Below are positions 13,838 through 58,206 of a stretch of 64,000 nucleotides of DNA, in pieces. This DNA is from Candidatus Eiseniibacteriota bacterium. GTDB taxonomy: Bacteria > Eisenbacteria > RBG-16-71-46 > JABDJR01. Position 1 is the first letter of the stretch. Every line of letters begins with the position of its first letter. Under the pieces are notes generated by a model, which worked only from the letters and a program-made list of their open reading frames with translations, was not told the origin of the DNA and did no database searches. The position numbers and the translations under genes are program-made. Location: contig CAWANH010000017.1 of NCBI GenBank assembly GCA_963783375.1, forward strand, positions 1 to 64,000. Reading direction: 5' to 3'.

Positions 13838-13866
13838 GGGCGCCCGGCCTTGAAACCGGGCGCCCT
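13838..13866. terminator. GC-rich hairpin between convergent rplS and the DUF1328 gene
   Basis: GGGCGCCCGG...CCGGGCGCCC inverted repeat; no strong U-tract. Confidence 0.45.
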
Positions 13867-13882
13867 TCCTCATGCCATCGCC

Positions 13883-14053
13883 CTAGGCGCGCGGGCGGCG
13901 GGCGATCCCCGCGATCAGGCTGATCACGAAGACCACCAGGAAGACGAAGAAGAGGATCTTGGCGATGGCCGCGGCCCCCACCGCGATTCCGGTGAAGCCG
14001 AACAGCGCGGCGATCAGGGCGACGACGAAGAAGACCAGGGCCCAGTAGAGCAT
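13883..14053 (-). CDS. DUF1328 / UPF0391 small membrane protein (YtjA-like)
   Basis: [24 protein letters not shown]...AKILF, 56 aa; AAGGAG RBS. Confidence 0.9.
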
Positions 14054-14106
14054 GGGCGACTCCTTTCGTGATTGACTCAGCGATGGGAAACCGGTCCGGG
14101 GGAAGC

Positions 14107-14337
14107 TCAGGCCGGCTTTCCGCGTCTCATCCCCACCGCCACCAAGGCGATGCCCCCGACCAGCACCACGGCGCCGATCGCGGGATGGATGGGGAGGGTC
14201 TCCTTCCGGCTCACGTTCACGTGAACCGGACCCAGGTCCGCGCTGTCGCGGTCCTTGGTGTAGGTGATGCCGCCCCAGACGATCCCCACCACGCCGAGCA
14301 GGATGAGGACAATTCCCAGGATCACGATCGCTTTCAT
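14107..14337 (-). CDS. DUF3185-like small membrane protein
   Basis: Two TM segments around GGITYTK...DLGP...PIHP; 76 aa; AAGGA RBS; similar to 50477-50698. Confidence 0.8.
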
Positions 14338-14488
14338 GAGGCTGATTCCTTTCCAGGGGGCGGGGGGCCGTCCCCGGAGTCGGGGCCGTCCCGGCTGGAG
14401 GCGAAGGCCCTCCGCGGAGTCCGGATCCGAGTCTCGCCGGCGCCCAAAGATGATCGGCGCCCGCCAGCTGGAACGAACTCTGTAACAA

Positions 14489-14517
14489 ATCATGACACAT
14501 GCTGTCCGCACCGTCAA
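14489..14517 (-). promoter_or_regulatory. Sigma70-type promoter for the two small membrane-protein genes
   Basis: Minus strand TTGACG, 17 bp spacer, CATGAT with TG extension. Confidence 0.5.
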
Positions 14518-14895
14518 ACCGGGGCGGCCGCGCGCGGGCCGGGATGGGGACCGGAGCCGCGGCCTCGAACTGATAAATCTATTTATAACAATGGTTTATA
14601 GGGAGCGACCCGCGTGGGGAAAAGCGGGGAATTTGCCCCACCCCGGCCGGGGTATGGGGGGTTCATGCGATCCGGGGGTGTAGGCGGACGCGCACCGGGG
14701 TCCGGGGGAGGCCGGTGCCCGGAGCTTTTCCTGAAGCCGCCCCCCGAATCGTCTATACTCCTCGGCTTCCTCGCCTCGGCGGGGATGCCCGCGGGGCCCG
14801 GCCGATCCGGGCCTGCCGCGACAAGACTTCTTCCTCCGGGCGAGGGCGGCGAGTCGCCGCCCCCCGGCAGATCCTCCGGAAAGGAGCGGTTCGGC

Positions 14896-15117
14896 ATGGC
14901 GGTGAGGGAATATCACGTGGGGTTGGGGGCCAACGGAACCTGGCACATTCAGCGCGAAGAGGCGGAGCGCCCGTTCGCCTACTATGGGGCCAAGGATGCC
15001 GCGGAGAGCGCGGCGCGGGTTCTGGCTCACCTGAACGAGGGCATCGTGGTGGTCCACGAAAAGGGCGGCCTCGTCCGTCGCACCGACTACAAGGGGCACG
15101 CCCTGGCTGCAAGCTGA
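14896..15117 (+). CDS. DUF2188-like small protein
   Basis: YHV...GTWHIQREEAERP...A...AR..A......VVVH..GG pattern; AAGGAG RBS at 14881. Confidence 0.7.
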   Translation: MAVREYHVGLGANGTWHIQREEAERPFAYYGAKDAAESAARVLAHLNEGIVVVHEKGGLVRRTDYKGHALAAS

Positions 15118-15198
15118 CCCGGCCTGGCCGGCTCCCGGCCCGCGGAAGCTACCCTTCGAACACTCGTCTCTTCGTGCCCGGCATCAGCCGTCGATCCG

Positions 15199-15277
15199 GC
15201 CCGGGCGGCCTCCGGCCGCCACCACGCCGATCGGGCGGAAGCCCCCGCGAACGTAGCGCTACCCGGTTCCGGCCGGC
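15199..15277 (+). repeat. 79-bp direct repeat, copy 1
   Basis: Identical to 17962-18040; contains the palindrome GTAGCGCTAC. Confidence 0.92.
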
Positions 15278-15540
15278 TCCCGCCGGCCTGGCTCGACTCC
15301 CCACGCCCCCAGCCCCAAGGCCCAAACTCGTTCGGATCCGATCCGGGCGGTTTCCTAGCCACCCGGGGACCGGGTACCCGGGCCGGTGCCCCCGTACCCG
15401 GCGGTGCGGTCCCCAGGGTATCCGGCGCCGCCGCTCGCCGTCTGTATCCCGTTATTCCGACGGGTGTTGACCGATCGATTCCTCCCCCGACCCCGATGGC
15501 ACCCGGGTTGCTTCCATCCGTGGGTGAGGAGGAACACTCC

Positions 15541-17907
15541 GTGAAGCGATGGGCTCTCGTCGTGGTGGGCTGCTCGCTCCTGGCCGGCGGACCGGCCGAG
15601 GGGATCGGCCTGGCGGTGAACGCCGGCCAACCGGTCCTGATTCAGGAGGACGCCCGGCGCGCCGTCATCTTCTACGACCACGGCCACGAGGAGCTTCTGG
15701 TTCAGGCCGTGTTCGAAGGAAGCGATGGGCCCGTCTGCTGGGTGATGGCCTTCCCCGGGCGGCCGACCGTCTCCGTGGCCGCGGTCGAAGCCCTGAACAA
15801 CGTGAGCCGGATCATGGCGGAGCGGGGCCGGTTGGATGGGCCGCCCCCGGTTCCCGGGGGATGTGCGGGCGTTCTCAGCTACATCTCCTTCAGCCCCGGG
15901 GACTCCCTCTCCCAGCTCACCGTGGTCGGACCGGCGGATACCGCCGGCCTGGACGCCTGGTTCGAACGGAACCGGTTCGCCTCCACCGGTGGCGGCTACG
16001 CCTCGTGCAAGGGAGAGATGGACCGGGGCCGATGGCTGGTCCTGGTTCGAACCACGCCCTACGCCTGGAGGCGTCAGGCCGGGGTGGTGCGCGGTGTCAT
16101 CGCCGGGCCGCTCCGGATCCGCTTCGACGTGCCGGACCCCGTCCTACCCATGGGCCCGAGCCCCGATCCATCGGGCCCAACGTCCTTGACGCTCTTCACC
16201 CTGGCCGGTCAACCCCTGGTGGCCGCGAACGCCGCGCCCGATTCCTGGGGTCACCGTTTTGCCCCGCCGGGCCCGCTCCCGCCCTCCCTCGCCGATGACC
16301 TTCCCGGAACCGCAACGGGCGATTTCTGGATCTCCCGCCTCGAGGCCGAACTGGACTCCGCGCCGGCGGAAGGGATCCGGTTCGCCCCCTACGATCCGAT
16401 GACCGACTTCTCACGGGGAGACCGTCGGGATCAGTTGGACGCGATCGCCTGTCTGGGGCTCCTCGGACGGAGAGACGCGGTCAAGCCGCTCATGGCGCGA
16501 CTCGACGCCGGCGATCCCAGGCAAGCCGAAGCCGCGGCGGCGATCTGCGCCCTGGGCCGGATCGGCGACCGGGCCGCGCTCCCGCTCCTTCTGGCCCGGG
16601 CGAAGAGCGAGAGCTGGAGGGTCCGGCGAGACGCGCTCTGGGCCCTGGGGCTCATGGGGGCCCGGGAGGCCTACCCGCTCTTCATCCGGGGACTCACCCG
16701 CAGGCAGGAGAACCTCGTGCAGCGGACGGCGAACGGCATGGTCCGCTACGTCAATCACCCGGGATCCGACCTGGCGGAGGGGGAGCGGCTCCTCTGTGTC
16801 CGGCTACTCCAGGAGCACGGCGACTCCACCTGCCTCGGACCCCTGCGGGGGATGCTCCGCGACTCGGTGAGCCAGGGCGACCGGTGGCGGCCCGCGGACC
16901 ATCGGCCGTACACACTGGCCGCCCTGGCCGGGCTTGGGGACCGCGACGCCTACCGCTCGGTGCTGGACGAGCTGGTCCGGGGTTCCCCGGTGACCCGGCC
17001 CGATGCGCTCGCCGGCGCCGGCGGCCCGTTCCGCTTCGCCGGGGAGATCCGGGGGCCGATCCTGAACGGATCTCCGCCCTCGCGCTGGCCGGCGGTGACC
17101 CGGGTCGAGGAACGATTCGCCGGAGCGCCCGCGGTGCGGGAGCGGCTGATCCGCGAGGCGTCCCGTGATGCCGCGGTTCCCGATCCGGGACGCGCGCTTC
17201 TCGTTGCCCGGCTTGACCGGCCCACGTCGGCGGACCGGGATGTCCTGGAGGCGATCCTCGACCGGGCGCTGTCCCACGACGACGGCTCCGTCGTGATCGG
17301 TGAGCGACGGGGGGCCGAAGAGGCCGGCGTGCTCCTCGACGTGGGCGCCTGCGCCGCGGTCTACGCGCTGGCCCGGCTGGGGGAGACCGATCGTCTGCTC
17401 GCGCTCTGGCGGAGCGAGGCGGGAGAACGGCCGGGGCTCCGGGGAGAGCTGGCCTACGCCCTGGCCGAGACCGGCTCGCCCGAGGCCCTGCCCGCGCTCC
17501 TCGAGTACGTGACCCGGGATTGGGACGCGGCATTCAGCGATCCGAATTTCGCGATCGCGCTGGACCGGCATCGGAACCGGAAACCCTACGATTGGATCGT
17601 CGCTCTTCGCGCGGTGGATTTCGACCACCGCAGCCGAGAGATCCGGGAGTTCGTGCGGGAGGCCGGCGGCCCCGAAGTCCTCCGCCGCTTGGCCGGGGAT
17701 CCGGCGCTCGACCCGTACTCGAGGCTCCTCTGGCTGCTCGAACTCACCACCGCCTATGCCCGCACCTACCGGGTTCCCGATCTCAATGGGACCGGGTTGG
17801 CGCTCCTCGATCGAATCGCCGGTCCGGCCTCGGGGCTCCCCGGGGGGCGGGAGCTGACCGAGGCGGTTCGCGCCGTGCTTCGGGGTGATCTGGGCGGAGG
17901 GGGGTAG
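15541..17907 (+). CDS. Exported DUF2330-like N-terminal domain + HEAT/PBS-repeat protein
   Basis: Signal peptide; RAVIFYD.G.EELLVQAVFEG....WV.AFP..P; HEAT repeats ALGRIGD / VRRDALWALG; GTG start after GAGGAGGA. Confidence 0.7.
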   Translation: MKRWALVVVGCSLLAGGPAEGIGLAVNAGQPVLIQEDARRAVIFYDHGHEELLVQAVFEGSDGPVCWVMAFPGRPTVSVAAVEALNNVSRIMAERGRLDGPPPVPGGCAGVLSYISFSPGDSLSQLTVVGPADTAGLDAWFERNRFASTGGGYASCKGEMDRGRWLVLVRTTPYAWRRQAGVVRGVIAGPLRIRFDVPDPVLPMGPSPDPSGPTSLTLFTLAGQPLVAANAAPDSWGHRFAPPGPLPPSLADDLPGTATGDFWISRLEAELDSAPAEGIRFAPYDPMTDFSRGDRRDQLDAIACLGLLGRRDAVKPLMARLDAGDPRQAEAAAAICALGRIGDRAALPLLLARAKSESWRVRRDALWALGLMGAREAYPLFIRGLTRRQENLVQRTANGMVRYVNHPGSDLAEGERLLCVRLLQEHGDSTCLGPLRGMLRDSVSQGDRWRPADHRPYTLAALAGLGDRDAYRSVLDELVRGSPVTRPDALAGAGGPFRFAGEIRGPILNGSPPSRWPAVTRVEERFAGAPAVRERLIREASRDAAVPDPGRALLVARLDRPTSADRDVLEAILDRALSHDDGSVVIGERRGAEEAGVLLDVGACAAVYALARLGETDRLLALWRSEAGERPGLRGELAYALAETGSPEALPALLEYVTRDWDAAFSDPNFAIALDRHRNRKPYDWIVALRAVDFDHRSREIREFVREAGGPEVLRRLAGDPALDPYSRLLWLLELTTAYARTYRVPDLNGTGLALLDRIAGPASGLPGGRELTEAVRAVLRGDLGGGG

Positions 17908-17961
17908 GACACCCGAAATTCCTCCCGGCGGGAGCTACCGTTCGGACGCTCGTCCCTTCTT

Positions 17962-18040
17962 GCCCGGGCGGCCTCCGGCCGCCACCACGCCGATCGGGCG
18001 GAAGCCCCCGCGAACGTAGCGCTACCCGGTTCCGGCCGGC
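17962..18040 (+). repeat. 79-bp direct repeat, copy 2
   Basis: Identical to 15199-15277. Confidence 0.92.
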
Positions 18041-18049
18041 CCCGTCCCC

Positions 18050-20110
18050 TCAGCCCAGCGCCCGCGCGATCCGCACCAGCTCCGCCACCGTCCAGGCCTG
18101 GGCGGGGCAGCCCTTGGGGGCGAACGGCGAGTCGCCGTCGAAGACCTCCGACGCCTGGCCGAGGCACGCCTCGCCCAGGTGCTCCACCCACCCGGCGAGC
18201 ACCCGTCGCGCCTCCGCGCGCCCCGCCTCGCCCTCGAACCGGAGCACCGCGTCCAGGTACGGTCCATGCAGCCACCCCCACACCGTTCCCTGGTGGTAGG
18301 CGCCGTCCCGGGTCCGCCGGTCGCCGCCGTAGTGCCCCCGGTACGCCGGGTCAGCCGGATCGAGGGACCGAAGCCCCCGCGGGGTGAGGAGCTTCTCCCG
18401 GGTGAGGGCGAGGATGCTCTGCGCCTGCTCGGGGGTGGCCAGGGGGTGGGGGAGCGACAGGGCCAGGAGCTGGTTGGGGCGGAAGCTCCAGTCGAGGCTC
18501 CCGTCGCCGCGGAGCACGTCGGCCAGGTACCCGCGCTCGGCGCCCCAGAACACCGGGAACGCCGCCTCCACCCGATCCGCCCCCTTCCGCCAGGGCTCGG
18601 GGTTCTTCCCGAGAGCGGCCTCGATCTCCTCCCCGATCCGGAGGAAGTTGAACCACAGGGCCTGGATCTCCACCGGCCGGCCGTGACGGGGGGTCACCAC
18701 CCAGTCGTCCACCTTGGCGTCCATCCAGGTGAGCTGCACTCCGGGTTCGCCGGCGGCGAGAAGGCCGTCCTCGGTGACGTGGATCCCGTGGCGGGTGCCG
18801 GTCCGGTGGCGGCGGAGGGCTTCACGGAGGGCGGGGAGCACCCCGGCCACGAACTCCAGGTCCCCGGTGGCGCGCCAGGTGTGCCGGACGGCGACCGCCA
18901 GCCACAGGGTGGCATCCACGGTGTTGTACTCGGGTTCCTCACCCTCGTCGGGGAACCGGTTGGGGATGAGGCCGTCCCGCATGTTCTCGACGAAGGTGAG
19001 GATCAGCTCCCGGGCCAGGTCCGCCCGTCCGGTGGCCAGGGTGAGGCCGGGGAGCGAGATCATGGTGTCCCGGCCCCAGTCGGTGAACCAGGGATAGCCC
19101 GCGATCACCGTGTTCTTCCCGCCCCGGCGGACCAGGAACTGGTCGGCGGCGAGGGCCAGGGATTGAAGCCCCGGAACGTCTTCGAGGAAGTCCAGCCGGA
19201 GGGCTTCGCGGCGCGCGAGTTCCTTCGCTCGGAGCGCGTCGTACGCCCCCGGTGATTCGGCGGTGGCGCTGGGATCGGGGGTGGGGCCGGCGCCGGGGGT
19301 GAGGCCCGCATTGGAGGTGAGGCCGGGATCGGGGGTGGCGCCGGCGCGGATCCAGGCCGGGCGGCCGGGCGTGAGCCGTAGTGCGAACTCCCCGGGGACC
19401 CAGAGATCCTCGCGGTCGGGAAGCCCGCGGGAGGTCTCTACCGGGAGCGCTTCGTCCAGCACCCAGATCGAGTCCGGGGTGAACCGCGCGCCCGGGGCGT
19501 GGATGTGGAGCACCGGGTCCTCGCCGCGAAAGCGGATGGCCACCCGGTCCTCGCCGCGCTGCTCCAACCGGCCGTCGTCGGCGCGTCGGACCACCGCGTG
19601 GTGATCCCGGAAGGCGAGCAGGGGGCGAACCCCCAGCTCCAACGGCTCGGGCCCCTGCCAGGTGTAGGAGAGGATCACGTCCCCCACGCCGTGGACCAGA
19701 AAGAGCTCGCGCACCAGCCGGCCGCCGGGGATCTCGTAGGTCCACCGGGGGAAGGGACGCGCCTCGAAGCGCGCCAGGTGGCGGTAGCCCTCGGGTTGTA
19801 TCACGTCGGGATAGCGGTGGGTGCTCAACCAGAGGTCTCCGTCCGGCCGGACCACCCGCTCGTCGATCGAGGCCCAGAGGACCATCCGCCCCAGGGGCGG
19901 GTGGACCGCCGGGTTCAGGATGGCGTGGTAGCAGCGCGTGTTGGCCAGGGCCACGGTGGAGGAGGAGAACCCGCCGAGGCCGTCGGCCTCCAGCCACTCC
20001 AGCTCGAGCGCCTTCTCTCCGGTGTCCGGGCCGGGGATGAACACGGTGGGGTCGGGGCGGCCCAGGCCGATGGCGCGGTCCTCGGGGTGCCCGATAGGGG
20101 ATGGGGTCAT
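18050..20110 (-). CDS. Glycogen debranching enzyme (amylo-alpha-1,6-glucosidase, GDE_N + GDE_C)
   Basis: EWLEADGLGGFSS, IAGYPWFTDWGRDTMISLPGL, LTWMDAK, YHQGTVW and QAWTVAE; start moved to ATG 20110. Confidence 0.93.
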   Translation of the reverse strand: MTPSPIGHPEDRAIGLGRPDPTVFIPGPDTGEKALELEWLEADGLGGFSSSTVALANTRCYHAILNPAVHPPLGRMVLWASIDERVVRPDGDLWLSTHRYPDVIQPEGYRHLARFEARPFPRWTYEIPGGRLVRELFLVHGVGDVILSYTWQGPEPLELGVRPLLAFRDHHAVVRRADDGRLEQRGEDRVAIRFRGEDPVLHIHAPGARFTPDSIWVLDEALPVETSRGLPDREDLWVPGEFALRLTPGRPAWIRAGATPDPGLTSNAGLTPGAGPTPDPSATAESPGAYDALRAKELARREALRLDFLEDVPGLQSLALAADQFLVRRGGKNTVIAGYPWFTDWGRDTMISLPGLTLATGRADLARELILTFVENMRDGLIPNRFPDEGEEPEYNTVDATLWLAVAVRHTWRATGDLEFVAGVLPALREALRRHRTGTRHGIHVTEDGLLAAGEPGVQLTWMDAKVDDWVVTPRHGRPVEIQALWFNFLRIGEEIEAALGKNPEPWRKGADRVEAAFPVFWGAERGYLADVLRGDGSLDWSFRPNQLLALSLPHPLATPEQAQSILALTREKLLTPRGLRSLDPADPAYRGHYGGDRRTRDGAYHQGTVWGWLHGPYLDAVLRFEGEAGRAEARRVLAGWVEHLGEACLGQASEVFDGDSPFAPKGCPAQAWTVAELVRIARALG
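19254..19343. repeat. In-frame 5 x 18-bp tandem repeat in the GDE linker
   Basis: Units at 19254, 19272, 19290, 19308 and 19326; encode GATPDP/GLTSNA/GLTPGA/GPTPDP/SATAES. Confidence 0.8.
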
Positions 20111-20206
20111 GGCGGCGTCCTCGATTCGGTTGCGGTTCCGGCCGGTGCGCGGCCCTCGGGTGGAGTGTACCCGGGCGTCCGCCCGCGGTCGCGGTCGGGT
20201 TGGCCA

Positions 20207-20469
20207 GGGCGGGGACACGGATGCTTCCCCGGGGAAGCAATGTTCGCAATAAAGGACGTTCCCCCGGGGACACACCAGAGCCGGTCCCGGTGCGCCCCCC
20301 GCGGATGCGCACCCGGGTACACCATGTTCGCACGATGTGCACCCGGGGAAGGCGTGGCGCGAAACGGCCCCGCGGACGCTCAGCCGTCGGGCGCTCGAGC
20401 GGCCCGGGTTCCAGCGGAGCCGCGGGCGGGGACACGGATGCTTCCCCGGGGAAGCAATGTTCGCAATAA
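20207..20469. repeat. Two identical 46-bp repeats with a perfect 18-bp palindrome, plus degenerate copies between them
   Basis: 20207-20252 equals 20424-20469; core TGCTTCCCCGGGGAAGCA. Confidence 0.9.
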
Positions 20470-20604
20470 GGGTAGCGCCAACGGTCCCGCGCCCCCCCCC
20501 CCCGGCCGCCGAGCGGCGGCGCTTCCAATCCTCCCGGAAGCCAGTATCATCCTTCGGGTGGAAGCCCGAGCCGATCCCGACTCCAACCCCGATGGAGGTG
20601 ACCC

Positions 20605-20964
20605 ATGCCGGCATCGATACCGAACGCAATTCGCGACCGGATTCGTAGTAGCTACCGCGGAGGCGATCTGGGCTGCGAGCGACTCCTCGCCCTTCTCGAC
20701 CACCGGGTGAGCCCCGGGGCGATGCGGGCGCGGAACGCGCTCGCCCGCCGGCTGGCCGAATCGGGTGGACACCGGAACCTGGCCGCCCACACCGAGGGGA
20801 GCCGGGACGGCACCCAGCACTTCACGATCTTCATCGACAACCGGGGCTACCACCTGCGCCTGGACGGCGGCGGGAACGTCTTCCAGATCACCGATCCCCA
20901 GGGGCGGGATCTGGGCATCGTCGAACCGTGGGTGGCCCCGGGAAGCGCACCCCCCAAGCGGTAG
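20605..20964 (+). CDS. Hypothetical protein (119 aa)
   Basis: Strong GGAGGTGA RBS; host-like codons; no family recognised. Confidence 0.7.
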   Translation: MPASIPNAIRDRIRSSYRGGDLGCERLLALLDHRVSPGAMRARNALARRLAESGGHRNLAAHTEGSRDGTQHFTIFIDNRGYHLRLDGGGNVFQITDPQGRDLGIVEPWVAPGSAPPKR

Positions 20965-20984
20965 GCCATCGCGAAGAATGCGGG

Positions 20985-21157
20985 GTGTAGCGTCCGGCGG
21001 TCCCCGCCGGCCCATCGCGCGCCCCCGAATCAGCGAGCCGCGGAATTCCGGCGCTCCGCGCCCTACTTCGCTCGAACGCTCCCCGCCGCGTCTGACCGCG
21101 CCCTACTTCGCGCGAACGCCCCCCGTCGCGCGCGACCGCGCCCGATCGCGCTACACT
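20985..21157. repeat. REP-like intergenic element with inverted ends GTGTAGCG/CGCTACAC and internal 40-bp tandem units
   Basis: CCCTACTTCGC.CGAACGC.CCCCG at 21061 and 21101. Confidence 0.55.
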
Positions 21158-21197: not shown

Positions 21198-21590
21198 ATG
21201 CACGGCACCACCCACGTGGAGCGCGGCCACCACGCCGAGACCCTCGCCGCCGCCTACCTCGCCCTCATGGGCTACGGGATCCTGGAGCGGAACTTTCGCT
21301 ACAGCCGACTCGAAGTCGACGTCATCGCCCGCCGCGACAACCTCCTGGTCTTCGTGGAGGTCAAGTTCCGCGAGCGCCCGCGAAAGGGGGGCGCGGTCGG
21401 TGCGGTGAACCGCGCCAAGCAGCTCGACGTGGAGACCGCGGCGGTGGGCTACGTCCGGTTGAAGCAGCTGTCGGGAGTGCGCATCCGCTTCGACGTGATC
21501 GCGGTGGAACCGGTCCGAGGCTCCGGCGCCTCGATCCTCATCCGCCACATTCCCGGCGCCTTTCCGGCCAGCGGACGGTACCGGATGTAG
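21198..21590 (+). CDS. yraN: YraN / UPF0102 family endonuclease-like protein
   Basis: GY.ILERNFR, EVDVIA, LVFVEVK.R and RFDVIAV motifs. Confidence 0.93.
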   Translation: MHGTTHVERGHHAETLAAAYLALMGYGILERNFRYSRLEVDVIARRDNLLVFVEVKFRERPRKGGAVGAVNRAKQLDVETAAVGYVRLKQLSGVRIRFDVIAVEPVRGSGASILIRHIPGAFPASGRYRM

Positions 21591-21798: not shown

Positions 21799-21992
21799 AA
21801 AAAAAAGCGACCGGCGCCAGTCTCCCCGCGTGCGGCCGTGGGAGCCGGCCGTTCGAATCCGATTCAAAGGTGGGTCCGGGTGGGACTTCCCGACATGCGG
21901 GAGAGGCAACCAGGTCCCAAAATCGGTGTGTTGACTCGAACGACTGGATTCCTCACGGTCCGGGCAGGGAGACTGCCGACGGCCGCGAACAC
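21799..21992 (-). ncRNA. ssrS: 6S RNA-like rod-shaped ncRNA
   Basis: About 190 nt; 5' GCGGCCGTCGGCAGTCTCCCTGC pairs with 3' GCGGGGAGACTGGCGCCGGTCGC; inner stem GTCGTTCGAGTC/GATTCGAACGGC; central bubble; apical stems; ends in U8. Confidence 0.7.
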
Positions 21993-22002
21993 CATGCCCT
22001 AC

Positions 22003-22019
22003 TGCAGGCTCAGTGCCAA
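22003..22019 (-). promoter_or_regulatory. Sigma54 (-24/-12) promoter for the 6S-like RNA
   Basis: Minus strand TTGGCACTGAGCCTGCA = GG-N10-GC; predicted +1 near 21992, just before the terminal stem. Confidence 0.65.
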
Positions 22020-22166
22020 AACCCTCAACGGATTATCTGTCATCTTCTAGCGCCTTGTGGCATCCTGATATAGCAATTCGAGATCCTGAATCCGTTCACG
22101 TCCGGACGGCCCGTTCCCCTTCCCCCTCCCGCTCCGGGTGATCACTTTGCAACCGGACACTGCACA

Positions 22167-22658
22167 ATGCTCGACCGCCTGCTCGAACATCCGGTGGTGG
22201 CCCTCGGGTTCATCGTCATCGTGGTCTTCATGGCCGGGTTCTATCTCATGAACCGGGAGCGGGCCAAGGTGGCCAGGATGCGGGGGCCGACACGCTTCCA
22301 GCCGGACTGGGGCCGCACCTCCCCCACGGGCCGGAGGCGGCGCCGTCGCCGCGCCGGGAGCTTCAGCCCGGAGTGGAACCGGAAATCCCGGACCGCCCCC
22401 GGGGCGTCCGCCCGCGACTCCGCCTCCGAACCGGGCTCCGACCCAACCCCTGGCCCGGCCTCCACCCCGACGCCTGACCTCACCCCCCCCGCCGAGCCGG
22501 CAGGGGTCACGCCGCACGGTCCCGTTTCCGCATCCCGGGTGGAATCGGCCGGGGGAGAAAAGGCGGATCCCCCGGAGTCGGGCGGAGAGGCCTCGGAGGG
22601 CCGGACACCGGGATCCGGGGAGCGGAAAGCGCCAAACGGCGGCACATCCGGCAGCTAG
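22167..22658 (+). CDS. Hypothetical single-TM protein with disordered Arg/Pro/Ser-rich tail
   Basis: One hydrophobic segment (VVALGFIVIVVFMAGFYLM) followed by a low-complexity tail. Confidence 0.6.
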   Translation: MLDRLLEHPVVALGFIVIVVFMAGFYLMNRERAKVARMRGPTRFQPDWGRTSPTGRRRRRRRAGSFSPEWNRKSRTAPGASARDSASEPGSDPTPGPASTPTPDLTPPAEPAGVTPHGPVSASRVESAGGEKADPPESGGEASEGRTPGSGERKAPNGGTSGS

Positions 22659-22947
22659 CTCCCCTCCGGCGACCCGGGGGACCCTCCCCGAAGTGGTTCC
22701 GGCGGCCCCGCCACCGGGTAGGTGCTTTCCACTTTGGCGTATCCGTTTCCACATTCCTAACCCATCCCTTTACAACGACTTAACAACTACAATGCCGAGG
22801 GCTGCGGAATCACCGGCCCGAGGCTTCCCAGTTCGCCCGGCGCCGGCGGGGAAATCCCCGGGAACCGGTTCCCGCCCCGAGGGCACAACCCATTGTCAAC
22901 AAGCAGGTTGAAGCGGTCCATCGGGCGTAGGTTCTGAGGCGGAATAA

Positions 22948-22963
22948 TGGCCCCGAACTTGCT
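22948..22963 (+). promoter_or_regulatory. Sigma54 (-24/-12) promoter for a putative sRNA
   Basis: TGGCCCCGAACTTGCT = GG-N10-GC with TTGC; predicted +1 near 22974. Confidence 0.7.
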
Positions 22964-22972
22964 GTATTAGTT

Positions 22973-23164
22973 ACTGAACGTGGTTGCGAGACCCACGTTG
23001 CGAGAGACAAGCAAGGCACTGGGGTTGAGCGAGACCCAAGCGCGCTTCTCTGAGTCAACTTTGCACCTCCATCGTTCAGGGAAGACAAGCAGCAGCCATC
23101 CATCTCGTTCAGCCTTGGTAGGCGGACCCGGCGGTCGGACACACGCCGGGTCCGCCGTTTCTTT
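22973..23164 (+). ncRNA. Putative unrecognised structured sRNA (~190 nt)
   Basis: Bounded by a sigma54 motif and a terminator; lower GC than flanks; 5' CTGAACG is complementary to CGTTCAG at 23073 and 23106; repeated GCGAGA and AGACAAGCA; no credible ORF. Confidence 0.6.
23121..23164 (+). terminator. Intrinsic terminator
   Basis: 13-bp perfect stem GGCGGACCCGGCG/CGCCGGGTCCGCC followed by GTTTCTTT. Confidence 0.8.
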
Positions 23165-23455
23165 GTCCCAGTCCCTCGCCCCGGATTCCCTCCCTTTCCG
23201 ACCCTCTCATCCAGAAACTCGAAATCGGTATTTCGGCCTTCCCCGCCCCATCCCTCCATTGACCTCAAACCTAAGTCCTGTTAGCGTTTACCTCCGAAGT
23301 CCGCCGGGTTTGCCCGGTTTTCCCCCCGGCGCCTCGGGGACGGCGATCACCGGCTTCCCAGAGCATCTGCCTACGCATTCCGGGTCGCGATCGCGGCGGT
23401 TTCGCCGCCGACGTGGCCGAGTTCCGTCTGCCCGACCGTCCCCGCGTGAGGTGTC

Positions 23456-24433
23456 GTGAACAGGAACAACGTCGAGTCCCTGGTGACCGGCCTGGCCGCG
23501 CGCGACACCCTGGCCCTGGCCCGGGTCATCAGCTGGGCGGAAAACCGGGACCCGCGGATCGGCGAGGTTCTGCGGCGCGTCTACCCGGATACCGGGCGGG
23601 CGCACCGGGTCGGGGTGACCGGGCCGCCGGGAGGAGGGAAGAGCACCCTCATCGCCCGGCTCGCTCTGGTTCTGAAGGCTCATGGGGAGCGGGTGGCGGT
23701 GGTGGCGGTGGACCCGACCTCGCCGTTCAGCGGCGGGGCGCTCCTCGGCGATCGGTTCCGCATGACCGAGCTGTCCGAGGATCCCGAGATCTTCATTCGC
23801 AGCATGGCCACCCGGGGGAGCCTGGGCGGGCTGGCCGCGGCCACCGAGGAGGCGCTGGACCTCCTGGACGCCGCCGGGTTCACCTGGATCCTGGTGGAGA
23901 CGGTGGGGGTGGGGCAGATCGAGCTGGACATCGCCAACGCCACCGATACCGTGGCGGTGGTGCTGGTTCCGGAGTCCGGCGATGCCATCCAGGCCATGAA
24001 GGCCGGGCTGATGGAGATCGGCGATCTCTTCGTGGTGAACAAGGCGGACCGGGACGGGGCGGAGCGGCTGAGCGTGGATCTCGAATCCATGCTCGACCTG
24101 CGCCCCGGGCGGGACGACTGGCGGCCGCGGGTGCTGAAGACGGTGGCCATGCGGGGCGAGGGGACGGCCGAGGTGGCCGAGGCGATGGAAACCCACCGCC
24201 GCCAGGTCGCCGGAACCGGTATTCTGGAGGAACGACGGCGGCGCACCCTGAAGCATCGGCTTCTGGGCGAGGCGCGCCAGGCGCTCCTCCGGCGGGTGGA
24301 GCGGGAGAACGAGGAAGGTCTGGAACGGCTCCTGGACCGGGTGATGCGGCGGGAGATCACCCCGCACGACGCGGCCCGGGAGCTGGTGGATCTTCTGGGG
24401 AGGGGCCCGGCCGAAGCGCCGGCATCGAACTAG
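23456..24433 (+). CDS. meaB: B12-mutase-associated GTPase MeaB
   Basis: [32 protein letters not shown] and NKAD motifs. Confidence 0.95.
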
Positions 24434-45687: not shown

Positions 45688-47355
45688 TCAAGGCGAGGCG
45701 GAATCCTTGCCCCCAGGGGCGCTCTCTCCCCGCAGGACACCGTAGCTCTTGAGCTTCCTGGAGAGCGTCGCCGATCCGATGTTGAGCTGCTCGGAGGTGC
45801 GGGTCCGGTTTCCGCCGTTCCGATCGAGCACGGCCAGGATGTAATCCTTCTCGATCTCGTCCAGGGCTCTCACCGGCCCGGAAAGGGACGGCGTCGGTAT
45901 CGCCTGGCGGACTTCCATCGGCAAATCCTCGAGCTCGATGAGGCTGGCATGCCCGAGAGCGACCGCGCGCTCCATGGCGTTCTCCAGTTCGCGCACGTTA
46001 CCCGGCCAGTCGTATCGCAGCAGCTGGTCCGCCGCGCGCGGGGACAGCCCGGTGACCGGGCGCTTGATCCGCTCGGCGGAGTCGCTCAGCAGCACCCGTG
46101 CCAGGGGCAGAATGTCCTCCCGCCGGTCCCGCAGCGCCGGCATGTGAACCTGAACCACGTTCAGCCGGTAGTACAGATCCTTGCGGAAGCGACCCGCCGC
46201 AATGTCCGAGGCCAGTTCACGGTTCGTGGCGGCCATCACCCGCACGTTCACCGGCCGGCTCTTGTTCTCGCCGACCCGGCGGATCTCCCGTTCCTGGAGA
46301 ACCCGCAGCAGCTTGACCTGCATGCCGGGCGAGACCTCGCCGATCTCGTCGAGCAGCAGCGTTCCGCCGTTGGCCGCCTCGAACAGGCCGGCTCGGTCGT
46401 GCGCTGCGCCGGTAAACGCGCCCCGCGCATGGCCGAAGAGCTCGCTCTCGAGGAGGGATTCAGTGATGGCGCCGCAGTTGACGGCGATGAAAGGCCCCGA
46501 TGCGCGGGCGGATTCGTCGTGGATCATGTGCGCGATGAGTTCCTTGCCCGTACCGCTCTCCCCGGTGATGAGGGCGGTCGAGTCCACCTTGGCGATCCGC
46601 CGCGCGAGGTCGATCACCCGCCGCATGGCGGGGCTCCTTACGATCATCCCGAGGGGATCCTCGACGTCGGGGACCATGCGGGTGAGCGCGCGCCTCCTCT
46701 CGTGGAGCTTCCTCTCGGTCTCCTTGAGACTCTCGGTGATCTGGTGGAGCGAGGGCTCGAGCCATTCCTTGAGGTTTTCGGCGCGATAGAAGCGGAGCTC
46801 GTCGGCTCGATCGTCGCCCCACTCCTCGATGGTGCGAGCGAGAAGGTGACACGAGGAATTGCCCCGTCCGATACAACGTTCTTCGAGAACGTACATCTTC
46901 ATGCCCAGGGCCCGGCTCAGGTAGCCGCTGGTGAGACCGCAGATCGTCCAGCACACCGAGGTGTCGCTGCGCCCGAGATGGGCGATGTGCTGCTCCGCCT
47001 CATAGGATCCGACCAGGGTCAACCCCTCCTTGATCAGCGAGCCGGGGGTGCCCGGCGCCAGACGGTACATCCCCTCGAGCATGTGGATGCGGCCGCCGGC
47101 AAGCTGCCAGTCCTCCTTGCTCTCCCACTGGAACAGGTCCTGCATCGCTTCGGCCATGCGCCAGCCCTGTACGAAGCCGAACCGGGTGAGGACGGCGCGC
47201 GCGGCACTGAGGCCGAAGTGATTGATCAACTCCTTGCGCAGGGTCCCCTTCGCCGTGGCGTCAATTATGAGTGCGCGCTCGCCCGCGAAGCGGACCGTGC
47301 CTCCATCAGAGTCAAACTCGACCAGCTCGCCGATATTCAGGTCCTCGACGCGCAT
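45688..47355 (-). CDS. Sigma54-dependent activator, XylR_N/V4R type
   Basis: SYEAEQH..CW..G..SGY V4R sensor; GESGTGKE; GAFTGA; LLDEIGE; WPGNVREL; C-terminal HTH. Confidence 0.93.
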   Translation of the reverse strand: MRVEDLNIGELVEFDSDGGTVRFAGERALIIDATAKGTLRKELINHFGLSAARAVLTRFGFVQGWRMAEAMQDLFQWESKEDWQLAGGRIHMLEGMYRLAPGTPGSLIKEGLTLVGSYEAEQHIAHLGRSDTSVCWTICGLTSGYLSRALGMKMYVLEERCIGRGNSSCHLLARTIEEWGDDRADELRFYRAENLKEWLEPSLHQITESLKETERKLHERRRALTRMVPDVEDPLGMIVRSPAMRRVIDLARRIAKVDSTALITGESGTGKELIAHMIHDESARASGPFIAVNCGAITESLLESELFGHARGAFTGAAHDRAGLFEAANGGTLLLDEIGEVSPGMQVKLLRVLQEREIRRVGENKSRPVNVRVMAATNRELASDIAAGRFRKDLYYRLNVVQVHMPALRDRREDILPLARVLLSDSAERIKRPVTGLSPRAADQLLRYDWPGNVRELENAMERAVALGHASLIELEDLPMEVRQAIPTPSLSGPVRALDEIEKDYILAVLDRNGGNRTRTSEQLNIGSATLSRKLKSYGVLRGESAPGGKDSASP

Positions 47356-56619: not shown

Positions 56620-58206
56620 TCAGCGGGTCCTCTCCGCCGCGGCCGGGCGCGGGTGCGCGCCCCTCCGAGGCTCCGTCGCTCTGCGCGGCCTCATCGCCCC
56701 CGCCTCGTCGCCCCCGGCCGCCCCAACAGCCGCCAGGGGTTGATGCCGCTCCCGCCCTCCGGGAGCCGGGCGCATCCGCTGCTCCTCCTCGTGGGCGGCG
56801 ATCACCGCGGCGATCACCGCCGCCCGGCCGCGGTCGGAATCCGTCTCGCTCTCCATCCCTTTGAACACGGTTTCGATGAACCGGGTGTCGTAGTCCCCCC
56901 GGATGAACTCGTCCCGTCCCAGCACCCAGCGATGGAAGGGGATGTTGGTACGCACCCCCTCCACCAGGGCCTCGGCCAGGGACCGGAGCATCCGGCGGCG
57001 CGCCTCCTCGCGGTCGGCGCCGTGCACGATGAGCTTTCCCAGCATGGGGTCGTAGAAGCGGGTCACCTCGGTCCCGGCCAGGATGCCGATGTCGTTCCGG
57101 ATCCCCGGGCCCGCCGCCGGTCGAAGCCGGCTGATCCGGCCCAGGGAGGGAAGGAAGTTGTTGTAGGGGTCCTCGGCGTAGATGCGGCACTCGATGGCCC
57201 ACCCCTTGGGAACCAGGTCCTCCTGCTTCCAGGACAGGGTCTCGCCCGCGGCCACGCGCACCTGCTCCCGCACCAGGTCCACGCCGTAGACCAGCTCGGT
57301 CACCGGGTGCTCGACCTGGAGCCGGGTGTTCATCTCCAGGAAGTAGTGCTCGCCTCCCGCCCCGTAGATGAACTCCACCGTGCCCGCGTTCCGGTAGTTC
57401 ACCGCGCGGGCCAGGCGCACCGCGGCCTCGCCCATGGCGGCGCGAAGCTCGGGGGTCACCACCGTCGAGGGAGACTCCTCCACCACCTTCTGGTGGCGGC
57501 GCTGGAGGGAACACTCCCGCTCTCCGAGGTGGACCACGTTCCCCGCCCGGTCGCCCATGATCTGGATCTCGATGTGCCTCGGCTTGTCGATGAACTTCTC
57601 CAGGTACAGGGTGCCGTCCCCGAAGGCGTTCTCCGCTTCGCCGCGGGTGAGGTCGAAGGCCCGCTCCAGCTCCTTGGGGCCGGGGACCACCCGCATCCCC
57701 TTTCCGCCCCCGCCCGCCGAGGCCTTGAGCATGACCGGGTAGCCGATGGCCGCGGCCTGTTCCTTCGCCTCCTTCACGTCGGTCACCGGCCCCGGGCTTC
57801 CCGGAACCACGGGGACCCCGGCCCGGCGCGCCGCCTCGCGGGCCTGGAGCTTGTCCCCCATGGCGGCGATCGTCTCCGGCGAGGGCCCGATGAAGGTGAG
57901 TCCCGCCGTTTCCACCGCCCGGGCGAAGGCGGCGTTCTCCGAGAGGAAGCCGTATCCGGGATGGACGGCCTCCGCTCCCGAGCGGCGGGCCGCGTCCAGG
58001 AGCGCCTCCTGGTCGAGGTAGGACTCCGCCGAGGGCGGGGGGCCGATCGGGTAGGCGAGGTCGGCGAACCGGACGTGCAGGGAGTCCCGGTCGGCCTCGC
58101 TGAACACGGCGACCGACTCGATATCGAGCTCCCGGAGGGCCCGGATCACCCGGACCGCGATCTCCCCGCGGTTGGCCACCAGGACCCGGTTGAACGGAGG
58201 TTTCAT
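56620..58206 (-). CDS. accC: Biotin carboxylase subunit (acetyl/propionyl-CoA carboxylase)
   Basis: ANRGEIA, HPGYGFLSEN, GGGGKGMR and EMNTRLQVEH; true stop may be 56691 if there is a +1 error near 56760. Confidence 0.93.
   Translation of the reverse strand: MKPPFNRVLVANRGEIAVRVIRALRELDIESVAVFSEADRDSLHVRFADLAYPIGPPPSAESYLDQEALLDAARRSGAEAVHPGYGFLSENAAFARAVETAGLTFIGPSPETIAAMGDKLQAREAARRAGVPVVPGSPGPVTDVKEAKEQAAAIGYPVMLKASAGGGGKGMRVVPGPKELERAFDLTRGEAENAFGDGTLYLEKFIDKPRHIEIQIMGDRAGNVVHLGERECSLQRRHQKVVEESPSTVVTPELRAAMGEAAVRLARAVNYRNAGTVEFIYGAGGEHYFLEMNTRLQVEHPVTELVYGVDLVREQVRVAAGETLSWKQEDLVPKGWAIECRIYAEDPYNNFLPSLGRISRLRPAAGPGIRNDIGILAGTEVTRFYDPMLGKLIVHGADREEARRRMLRSLAEALVEGVRTNIPFHRWVLGRDEFIRGDYDTRFIETVFKGMESETDSDRGRAAVIAAVIAAHEEEQRMRPAPGGRERHQPLAAVGAAGGDEAGAMRPRRATEPRRGAHPRPAAAERTR

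Follow-up and report, generated by a model that had tools for sequence, protein, structure and literature searches.

A second 6S RNA gene with a sigma54-type promoter motif and an adjoining small RNA with a predicted mRNA target in Eisenbacteria

Why some bacteria have two 6S RNAs, and whether alternative sigma factors control any 6S RNA, has long been an open question. It is raised again by a locus in contig CAWANH010000017.1 (GenBank assembly GCA_963783375.1) from a Candidatus Eiseniibacteriota bacterium, of which positions 1 to 64,000, referred to here as the window, were analysed. A first-pass annotation, made from the sequence alone, had placed there a divergent pair of sigma54-driven RNAs of about 190 nucleotides (nt), RNA1 on the minus strand and RNA2 on the plus strand. 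The locus is real and is broader than first described, a conclusion that rests on comparative evidence. On balance, it probably holds two separate non-coding RNA genes, one for a sigma54-made second 6S RNA that would act as a decoy for sigma70 RNA polymerase, and the other for a small RNA (sRNA) that would block the mRNA of a single surface protein.

The genome of the window (G000) is 4.73 Mb and 97 % complete, and the family of the window cassette, f1, comprises 8 genomes. All of the phylum-level genomes listed are from the same class. The cassette, namely RNA1 (hereafter 6S-2), a gene for a small transmembrane (TM) protein and RNA2, was found in 7 of the 8 f1 genomes, the remaining one being G002, an assembly of 440 contigs in which a yraN match was likewise not found. 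The whole cassette is also on 2 further metagenome contigs; the metagenome pattern search gave 12 matches, of which 4 are RNA2 (two identical) and 2 extend to the 6S gene.

RNA1 is a 6S RNA and is the second copy in its genome. With permissive filters it matches RF00013 at 49.6 bits (E value 2e-8; cut-off 46.4), and the 6S-like nature suggested for it earlier is supported. Both 6S copies were missed with the Rfam gathering filters and in an RF00013 search of the genome itself, and came up with permissive filters and in profile searches. The canonical one lies at G000:C29:533224-533404, in the order pheT-zapB-zapA-6S-ymdB in the open reading frame list. RNA1 folds better than all 200 shuffles (z -6.46), and over 9 sequences 92 % of cells are paired and 12 of 46 pairs are compensatory, a count that is inflated by kinship. 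The predicted structure is a rod with a closing stem and a central bubble, the bubble being partly closed in the prediction, as it is in the canonical G000 copy. The cross-bubble helix, considered as a hallmark of 6S-2, was dropped because the canonical copy has the same prediction. Pairing between the 5' leader and the 3' part lengthens the outer stem, and the core is 157 nt, compared with 181 nt in the canonical copy. The apical ('-35'-like) arm has shrunk to a short loop in L283 and L285, and the copy in the window keeps both the closing stem and the helix that flanks the bubble, as well as the CCCACC word. Both RNAs end in a U-tract, as had been noted. Pairing of the 5' end with the 3' part, also predicted for both, holds for RNA1 (helix 1) and not for RNA2, which has a local 5' hairpin and a terminator hairpin of its own.

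The back-to-back GG-N10-GC motifs that drew attention to the locus are present, as TGGCAC-N5-CTGCA on the minus strand and TGGCCC-N5-TTGCT on the plus strand. The bare GG-N10-GC pattern, with 23.6 occurrences per kb of the genome, is uninformative as a sole criterion. Scored against TGGCACG-N4-TTGCW, which we take to be the sigma54 consensus, each site has 2 mismatches, and 165 sites in the genome (4.7 Mb, both strands) are as good, 76 intergenic sites having no more than 2 mismatches. In the class with 0 or 1 mismatch there is a spacing peak, with 31 sites compared with 2 to 4 for spacers 1 or 2 longer or 1 shorter, and 23 for spacers 2 shorter. Both motifs are conserved in position in 7/7 f1 genomes that hold the locus, and the 6S-2 motif is also found in both metagenome cassettes. 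Among the RNA2 promoters of 10 loci, the spacing is exact in all 10 and 8 have no more than 3 mismatches. An rpoN gene is encoded in the genome, together with 25 sigma54-activator domain matches above 170 bits, and rpoN was matched in 100 of 101 genomes of the class. Both RNAs are likely to be transcribed by sigma54 RNA polymerase. The proposed 5' ends, about 12 nt past the GC dinucleotide, are predicted, not mapped. Most genomes of families f15 and f16 have two near full-length rpoN-like genes.

Across the phylum, canonical and second copies are cleanly split. The canonical 6S gene follows zapA in 49/49 cases examined in the class. Second copies with usable upstream sequence number 33, from six families, with 18 from f9; single weak, unfetched R1 matches are outside this count, and a copy at a contig edge (G059:C46) and a full-length copy with a sigma70-type promoter (G133:C31) were left out. 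A sigma54 motif, defined as no more than 3 mismatches within 130 nt upstream, precedes 24/28 copies in a first set and 4/5 in a held-out set, or 28/33 together; the corresponding figures are 0/49 for canonical copies and 1.7 % for 20,000 random windows. By family, the motif was found in f1 (7/7), f9 (18/18), f5 (1/1) and f18 (2/3), and in neither f2 (0/2) nor f12 (0/2); the copies that it precedes span four families and two loci that are unrelated (yraN and gpmI-sppA). A sigma28-type motif precedes all five f18 and f2 copies, covering 3 of the 5 sigma54 exceptions, at a level (2 mismatches of 13) reached by 0/49 canonical copies and 3/5,000 random windows; this count is post hoc, because the motif was spotted on inspecting the sigma54 misses. 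A FliA/WhiG-type sigma factor is encoded in the three f18/f2 genomes tested. With both types counted, an alternative-sigma motif precedes 31 of the 33 second copies. The copies with the sigma28-type motif are L190, L156 and L159 (f18) and L192 and L245 (f2), and in G063 and G132 the sigma54 and sigma28 motifs are in tandem.

Second copies are convergent to yraN in f1, f5 and f18, about 1 kb past yraN in f2, and between gpmI-like and sppA-like genes (named from their translations) in f9. Canonical cores are 173-195 nt, and those of second copies are 179-183 nt in f5 and f18, 155-169 nt in f1, 125 nt in f2, 114 nt in f12 and 104-106 nt in f9. The shortening falls in the apical arm, making the second copies a natural apical-arm deletion series with cores from 183 to 104 nt. 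A second 6S was found near yraN at 4/30 and 1/36 yraN loci, with two further weak matches (E values 0.03 and 0.1). The yraN loci of most other families yielded no second copy in searches that were lossy, and an R1 search of five foreign genomes found nothing. A tree of 47 cores requires 4 label changes, and its strong branches are compatible with a single origin as well as with several. The f9 copies are mini-6S RNAs of about 105 nt that lack the apical arm and are highly conserved (L173-L187, L138 and L241-L244; for example L174:1961-2066(+)), with tandem TGGCTC/GAGCCAC-like palindromes upstream in two genera. The two copies left out of the count, L189 (G133:C31:364-548) and L137 (G059:C46:6-201), are extra full-length 6S genes and may be third copies or binning errors.

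RNA2 matches no Rfam family with gathering or permissive filters. It has its own promoter motif, an intrinsic terminator and a conserved non-coding structure, consisting of a 5' hairpin, an outer stem, an internal loop, an inner stem conserved in sequence, an apical loop and a covarying terminator. The fold is better than all 200 shuffles (z -3.9), and 9 of 24 pairs are compensatory. A model built from six sequences (R2) scored 87.7 bits on the unseen G007 copy and matched 7 of the 8 f1 genomes; across 150 genomes, the matches outside f1 were weak (six genomes, no more than 26.7 bits). The apical-loop word GCACCUCC is invariant in 10/10 RNA2 sequences, its CACCUC core is predicted to be mostly unpaired in 8/10, and it overlaps the 16S rRNA 3' end of the genome. 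RNA2 looks like a trans-acting base-pairing sRNA.

A target screen covered 3,771 predicted gene starts from our own simple gene calls. The gene at G000:C3:231128-234466(-) was second in a loop-only screen, with a perfect 12-nt match over the Shine-Dalgarno (SD) sequence. The 5' arm of RNA2, absent from the first screen, adds a contiguous helix of 21 bp on the adjoining target bases, and the two helices abut, covering target positions -39 to -7 including the SD sequence. By contiguous-helix score this gene is first of the 3,771 (31.5, with the next at 21.5), 28 shuffles of the RNA2 5' part gave best scores of 19.5-24.0, and the longest 5' helix is 21 bp compared with 15-16 bp elsewhere. The target leader is near-invariant in 5 genomes. 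Predicted pairing between cognate partners is 21+12 bp in G000, 20+12 in G001, 11+10 in G003, 11+7 in G004 and 10 bp, with the loop only, in G006; two-site pairing is thus found in 4/5 genomes and pairing to the SD sequence in 5/5. When the RNA2 homologues were run against the G000 gene set, those of G001, G003, G004 and L290 ranked the target first, L283 second (tied) and L285 fifth to ninth, placing it within the top 10 for 6 of the 9 other homologues.

The predicted target encodes a protein of 1,112 amino acids (aa) with a signal-peptide-like N-terminus (by eye) and a C-terminal FlgD_ig/Por_Secre_tail domain, and it is likely to be located at the cell surface. Krumholzibacteriota and Eisenbacteria account for most of its look-alike clusters, and a PDB search found no solved relative. 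The gene has a sigma70-type promoter (TTGACA-N17-TATACT) 375 nt upstream. Two blocks of its predicted 5' leader, L293 (G000:C3:234467-234840, minus strand; about 370 nt), are conserved, one directly past the promoter and the other, about 90 nt long and near-invariant, at the start codon, and the leader may be subject to further regulation. In the sister family f2, the SD context of the target is kept in both genomes (G008 and G009), where the loop 10-mer has 22 exact matches, two of which are the targets themselves. The match in G008:C13 is intergenic and extends over the 12-nt loop word. A sigma54 motif with 1 mismatch, of a kind found in 0.04 % of random 180-nt windows, precedes it by 66 nt. 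This match marks a candidate RNA2 analogue at a different locus (L328, about 57450-57670, minus strand), with a predicted rod of about 165 nt. A class-wide search for the promoter plus loop pattern gave no excess over the reversed control and left the known cases unmatched, and is uninformative.

We propose that an enhancer-binding activator, when it fires, would lead to sigma54 transcription of both RNAs. Like other 6S RNAs, though perhaps with weaker binding, 6S-2 would bind and hold sigma70 RNA polymerase, lowering sigma70 output, with the canonical zapA-linked 6S as an unregulated baseline. Arm-shortened copies can work, since a B. subtilis 6S-1 trimmed to its bubble and a pair of short arms goes on cycling, although its affinity is about 10-fold lower (PMC8876501, part consulted). 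The RNA2 loop would nucleate on the SD sequence of the target and extend via the 5' arm, blocking 30S loading, and RNA2 would thereby repress an envelope gene transcribed with sigma70.

A number of observations weigh against this proposal. The two f12 copies have a sigma70-type promoter (TTGACA-N18-TAGCGT, by eye) and the f2 copies have the sigma28-type motif; sigma54 is therefore not universal for second copies. Kin are not independent, the 33 copies being from 6 families and 18 of them from one. Two RNA2 promoters have 4 mismatches. The helix score was picked after the pairing had been seen, and raw duplex energies place the target at ranks 13, 14 and 326. The RNA2 homologues of G006, G007 and G005 rank it about 132nd, 188th and 425th, respectively. 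No target orthologue was found in G005 or G007; the held-out test on the G005 target failed for this reason, and the two target paralogues in G005 lack a predicted match. Changes in the sRNA are matched by changes in the target in G001 and G003, but cognate pairs are not the best in the cross matrix. The 5' arm of RNA2 is paired internally and needs to be displaced, and the net interaction is only about -6 to -8 kcal/mol in 3/5 genomes. Finally, the loop match in G009 extends in the same way as that in G008 but has no sigma54 motif, although the SD context of the target is kept.

A different reading of RNA2, which we consider rather unlikely, is that it is a broad anti-SD sRNA with many targets or that it activates the surface-protein mRNA by refolding its leader. 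Only GCACCUCC is invariant, GGAGGTG is found at 66 gene starts, the target leader has alternative folds, and the long 5' helix is lacking in G005 and G006. However, the loop pairs directly on the SD sequence in 5/5 cognate pairs, and in cofolds for G000 and G001 the SD sequence stays paired after the 5' arm has bound.

The first-pass annotation had one enhancer-binding protein co-inducing both RNAs as a single switch, with RNA2 as a protein sponge, and the divergent layout, which 7 family genomes and 2 metagenome contigs retain, is consistent with this. The elements upstream of the two promoters differ, and co-induction by one activator is therefore unsupported. A GCCAC element precedes 6/7 f1 copies of 6S-2, and was found 30-50 nt before 0/10 RNA2 promoters. 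In 7/10 RNA2 loci a CAA-N4-TTR element ends 37-54 nt before the promoter, and 9/14 f9 copies have a TGGCTC/GAGCCAC-like palindrome whose end lies 35-36 or 44-45 nt upstream of the promoter. The spacing of a TGCA-N9-TGCA dyad at the locus resembles what we take to be that of NtrC sites, and the label IHF-like for an AT-rich stretch likewise rests on what we assume to be the IHF consensus. No regulon-wide enhancer was found, the dyad and the GCCAC element both being absent from the remaining 75 of the 76 intergenic sigma54 sites. The two promoters share no proximal element and are about 560 to 940 nt apart, though they may share a distal enhancer, and the second 6S copies of other families have no RNA2 match alongside. 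The inner stem of RNA2 shows sequence conservation and does not covary, as for a protein site, but its purine-rich GGA/GGGA strand is base-paired, searches of the 97 %-complete genome gave 0 matches to CsrA and Hfq, and one mRNA carries an extended complement to RNA2 in its ribosome-binding region. The proposed protein-binding (Csr/Crc-type) role is not supported, and we regard the one-switch and sponge reading as improbable. A XylR/V4R-type sigma54 activator is encoded in the window (45688-47355, minus strand), 23 kb from the cassette, with no sign of being cognate. Elsewhere in the genome, at L295 (G000:C28:1755000-1760000), an NtrC-type activator, a FlhG/MinD-like ATPase and a second FliA/WhiG-type sigma factor are clustered, with a sigma54 motif directly after.

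Equally improbable in our estimation is that 6S-2 decoys another form of the polymerase, the sigma54 or sigma28 holoenzyme or the core, and so exerts negative feedback on the alternative-sigma programme. This would fit the alternative-sigma motifs before 31/33 second copies and an apical arm, the '-35'-like part (PMC8876501, part consulted), that is short in f1 and largely gone in f9, f12 and f2. However, the f5 and f18 copies are full length (179-183 nt), and the copy in the window retains the closing stem, bubble-flanking helix and CCCACC. Truncated B. subtilis 6S-1 still binds the sigmaA holoenzyme, and all 6S RNAs in the parts of the literature consulted bind the primary-sigma holoenzyme. 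Decoying of sigma70 polymerase is the function that we favour for 6S-2. That RNA2 is a third, strongly truncated 6S derivative, as a UGAG/UUCA helix end and a CACCU word might suggest by eye, was rejected as very improbable, since profiles of 47 6S cores (whole or armless) failed to match 8/9 RNA2 sequences and gave 1.6 bits for the ninth, and the 6S closing stem is absent.

The features of the locus are listed in Table 1. The TM gene is the single gene between the two RNAs, as first described, and is present in 7/7 genomes. Its product has a hydrophobic N-terminus, basic F-x-P-x-W repeats and a variable tail, with 19 homologues in total, one of them labelled Ca. Eisenbacteria by its source; there was no Pfam match, and an Atlas search gave none at 0.9 or above. 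Two F-x-P-x-W motifs flank an Arg-rich run, no clear SD sequence precedes the gene, and it is speculation that the protein might bind nucleic acid. The meaB operon, which encodes a mutase, a CoA transferase, an acyl-CoA dehydrogenase and a thiolase (Pfam), is a mere neighbour and a separate transcription unit. The earlier placing of the RNA pair at its head reflects position only, as the operon has its own sigma70 promoter after the RNA2 terminator, of a motif type with a strong genome-wide spacing peak (87 compared with 2-20). A role for RNA2 as a meaB leader or attenuator is unsupported on the same ground, and because G005 has the cassette without meaB adjoining and an R2 search of 80 foreign meaB loci gave 0 matches. 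The meaB SD sequence was also rejected on inspection as an RNA2 target, as it offers only about 7 bp and GGAGGT is present in 220 genes. Accessory genes lie between rplS and yraN (window 13850-21000), including genes for small membrane proteins, a glycogen debranching enzyme and a secreted protein of 800 aa, the last preceded by a sigma54 motif at 15497; in G012 and G066 an rnhB-like gene takes this place.

Table 1. Features of the yraN-meaB region of the window
Feature	Position	Strand	Basis or remarks
yraN (UPF0102)	21198..21590	+	Pfam PF02021; synteny; 6S-2 convergent and downstream in f1, f5, f18
6S-2 (RNA1)	21799..21992	-	Rfam RF00013; core 21819-21973; U8 tail; 5' end predicted
sigma54 -24/-12 motif of 6S-2	22003..22018	-	2 mismatches to consensus; conservation
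Conserved element, GCCAC on minus strand, 38 nt before 6S-2 promoter	22055..22074	.	Candidate activator half-site
TGCA-N9-TGCA dyad directly before TM gene start	22148..22164	.	Seen in 6/7 aligned
Small predicted single-pass membrane protein gene	22167..22658	+	7/7 conservation
AT-rich IHF-like stretch before RNA2 promoter	22894..22910	.	Putative role
sigma54 -24/-12 motif of RNA2	22948..22963	+	Exact spacing in 10/10
RNA2, undescribed sRNA	22974..23164	+	Model R2 matches; compensatory pairs; 5' end predicted
RNA2 5' arm	23011..23031	+	21-bp contiguous complement (3 G-U) of target -39 to -19
RNA2 apical loop, invariant GCACCUCC (anti-SD)	23063..23076	+	12-bp complement of target -18 to -7
RNA2 intrinsic terminator	23121..23164	+	7/12 pairs changed on both sides
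sigma70-type promoter TTGACC-N17-TAGCGT of meaB operon	23259..23287	+	8/10 loci examined
meaB, first operon gene	23456..24433	+	Pfam

If the proposal is correct, a sigma54-made decoy for sigma70 polymerase would give enhancer-binding activators a direct route to bias sigma competition. RNA2 would found a new family of sRNAs, its target being sharply predicted and Hfq being undetected in the lineage. More tentatively, and with considerable doubt, the phylum may repeatedly have put duplicated, arm-trimmed 6S copies under sigma54, or under sigma28 in two families, as an RNA-based sigma switch thrown by signal-gated activators, the trimmed copies trapping another polymerase form or binding more weakly. 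In the family of the window a coupled Hfq-independent sRNA would then silence a conserved surface protein, and sigma54 would remodel transcription and the envelope together.

Two 6S genes are known in B. subtilis (6S-1/6S-2), L. pneumophila (6S1/6S2) and some Firmicutes (PMC4211561, PMC3048289, PMC11077062 and PMC8414754, parts consulted), and, as here, they are at two distant loci and differ there in expression. The second copies described here differ in having a sigma54 or sigma28 motif of their own and often a shortened or deleted apical arm; no alternative-sigma promoter is assigned to a second 6S in those parts of the literature. The parts consulted of PMC4549902, PMC1874619 and PMC5982834 mention sigma54 without a tie to 6S transcription, and the literature searched, seen in part, holds no report of a sigma54- or sigma28-driven 6S RNA or of RNA2, though an earlier mention is possible. 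Sigma54-dependent base-pairing sRNAs include Vibrio Qrr, which acts at the ribosome-binding site of hapR/luxR, and GlnZ of E. coli (PMC13501541, parts consulted); flagellar sRNAs of Campylobacter and NfeR1 of S. meliloti are further listed cases (PMC11187230 and PMC10746234). Qrr and GlnZ resemble RNA2 as predicted here in being sRNAs under sigma54 and activator control that pair with target mRNAs, whereas RNA2 has no Rfam family, no Hfq was found in its genome, its pairing is a 33-nt two-site match on one target and it adjoins a 6S gene. CrcZ and GlmY are sigma54-driven, and CrcZ, CsrB/RsmY and GlmY are protein-binding RNAs. RNA2 differs from these in that no GGA or CA motifs repeated in single-stranded parts were seen in it, and CsrA and Hfq were not found. 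MicA and RybB are porin-repressing sRNAs that depend on sigmaE and Hfq and use short seeds. They share with RNA2 the use of an alternative sigma factor and the predicted shut-off of an envelope protein, which in the case of RNA2 is the 1,112-aa FlgD_ig/Por_Secre_tail protein.

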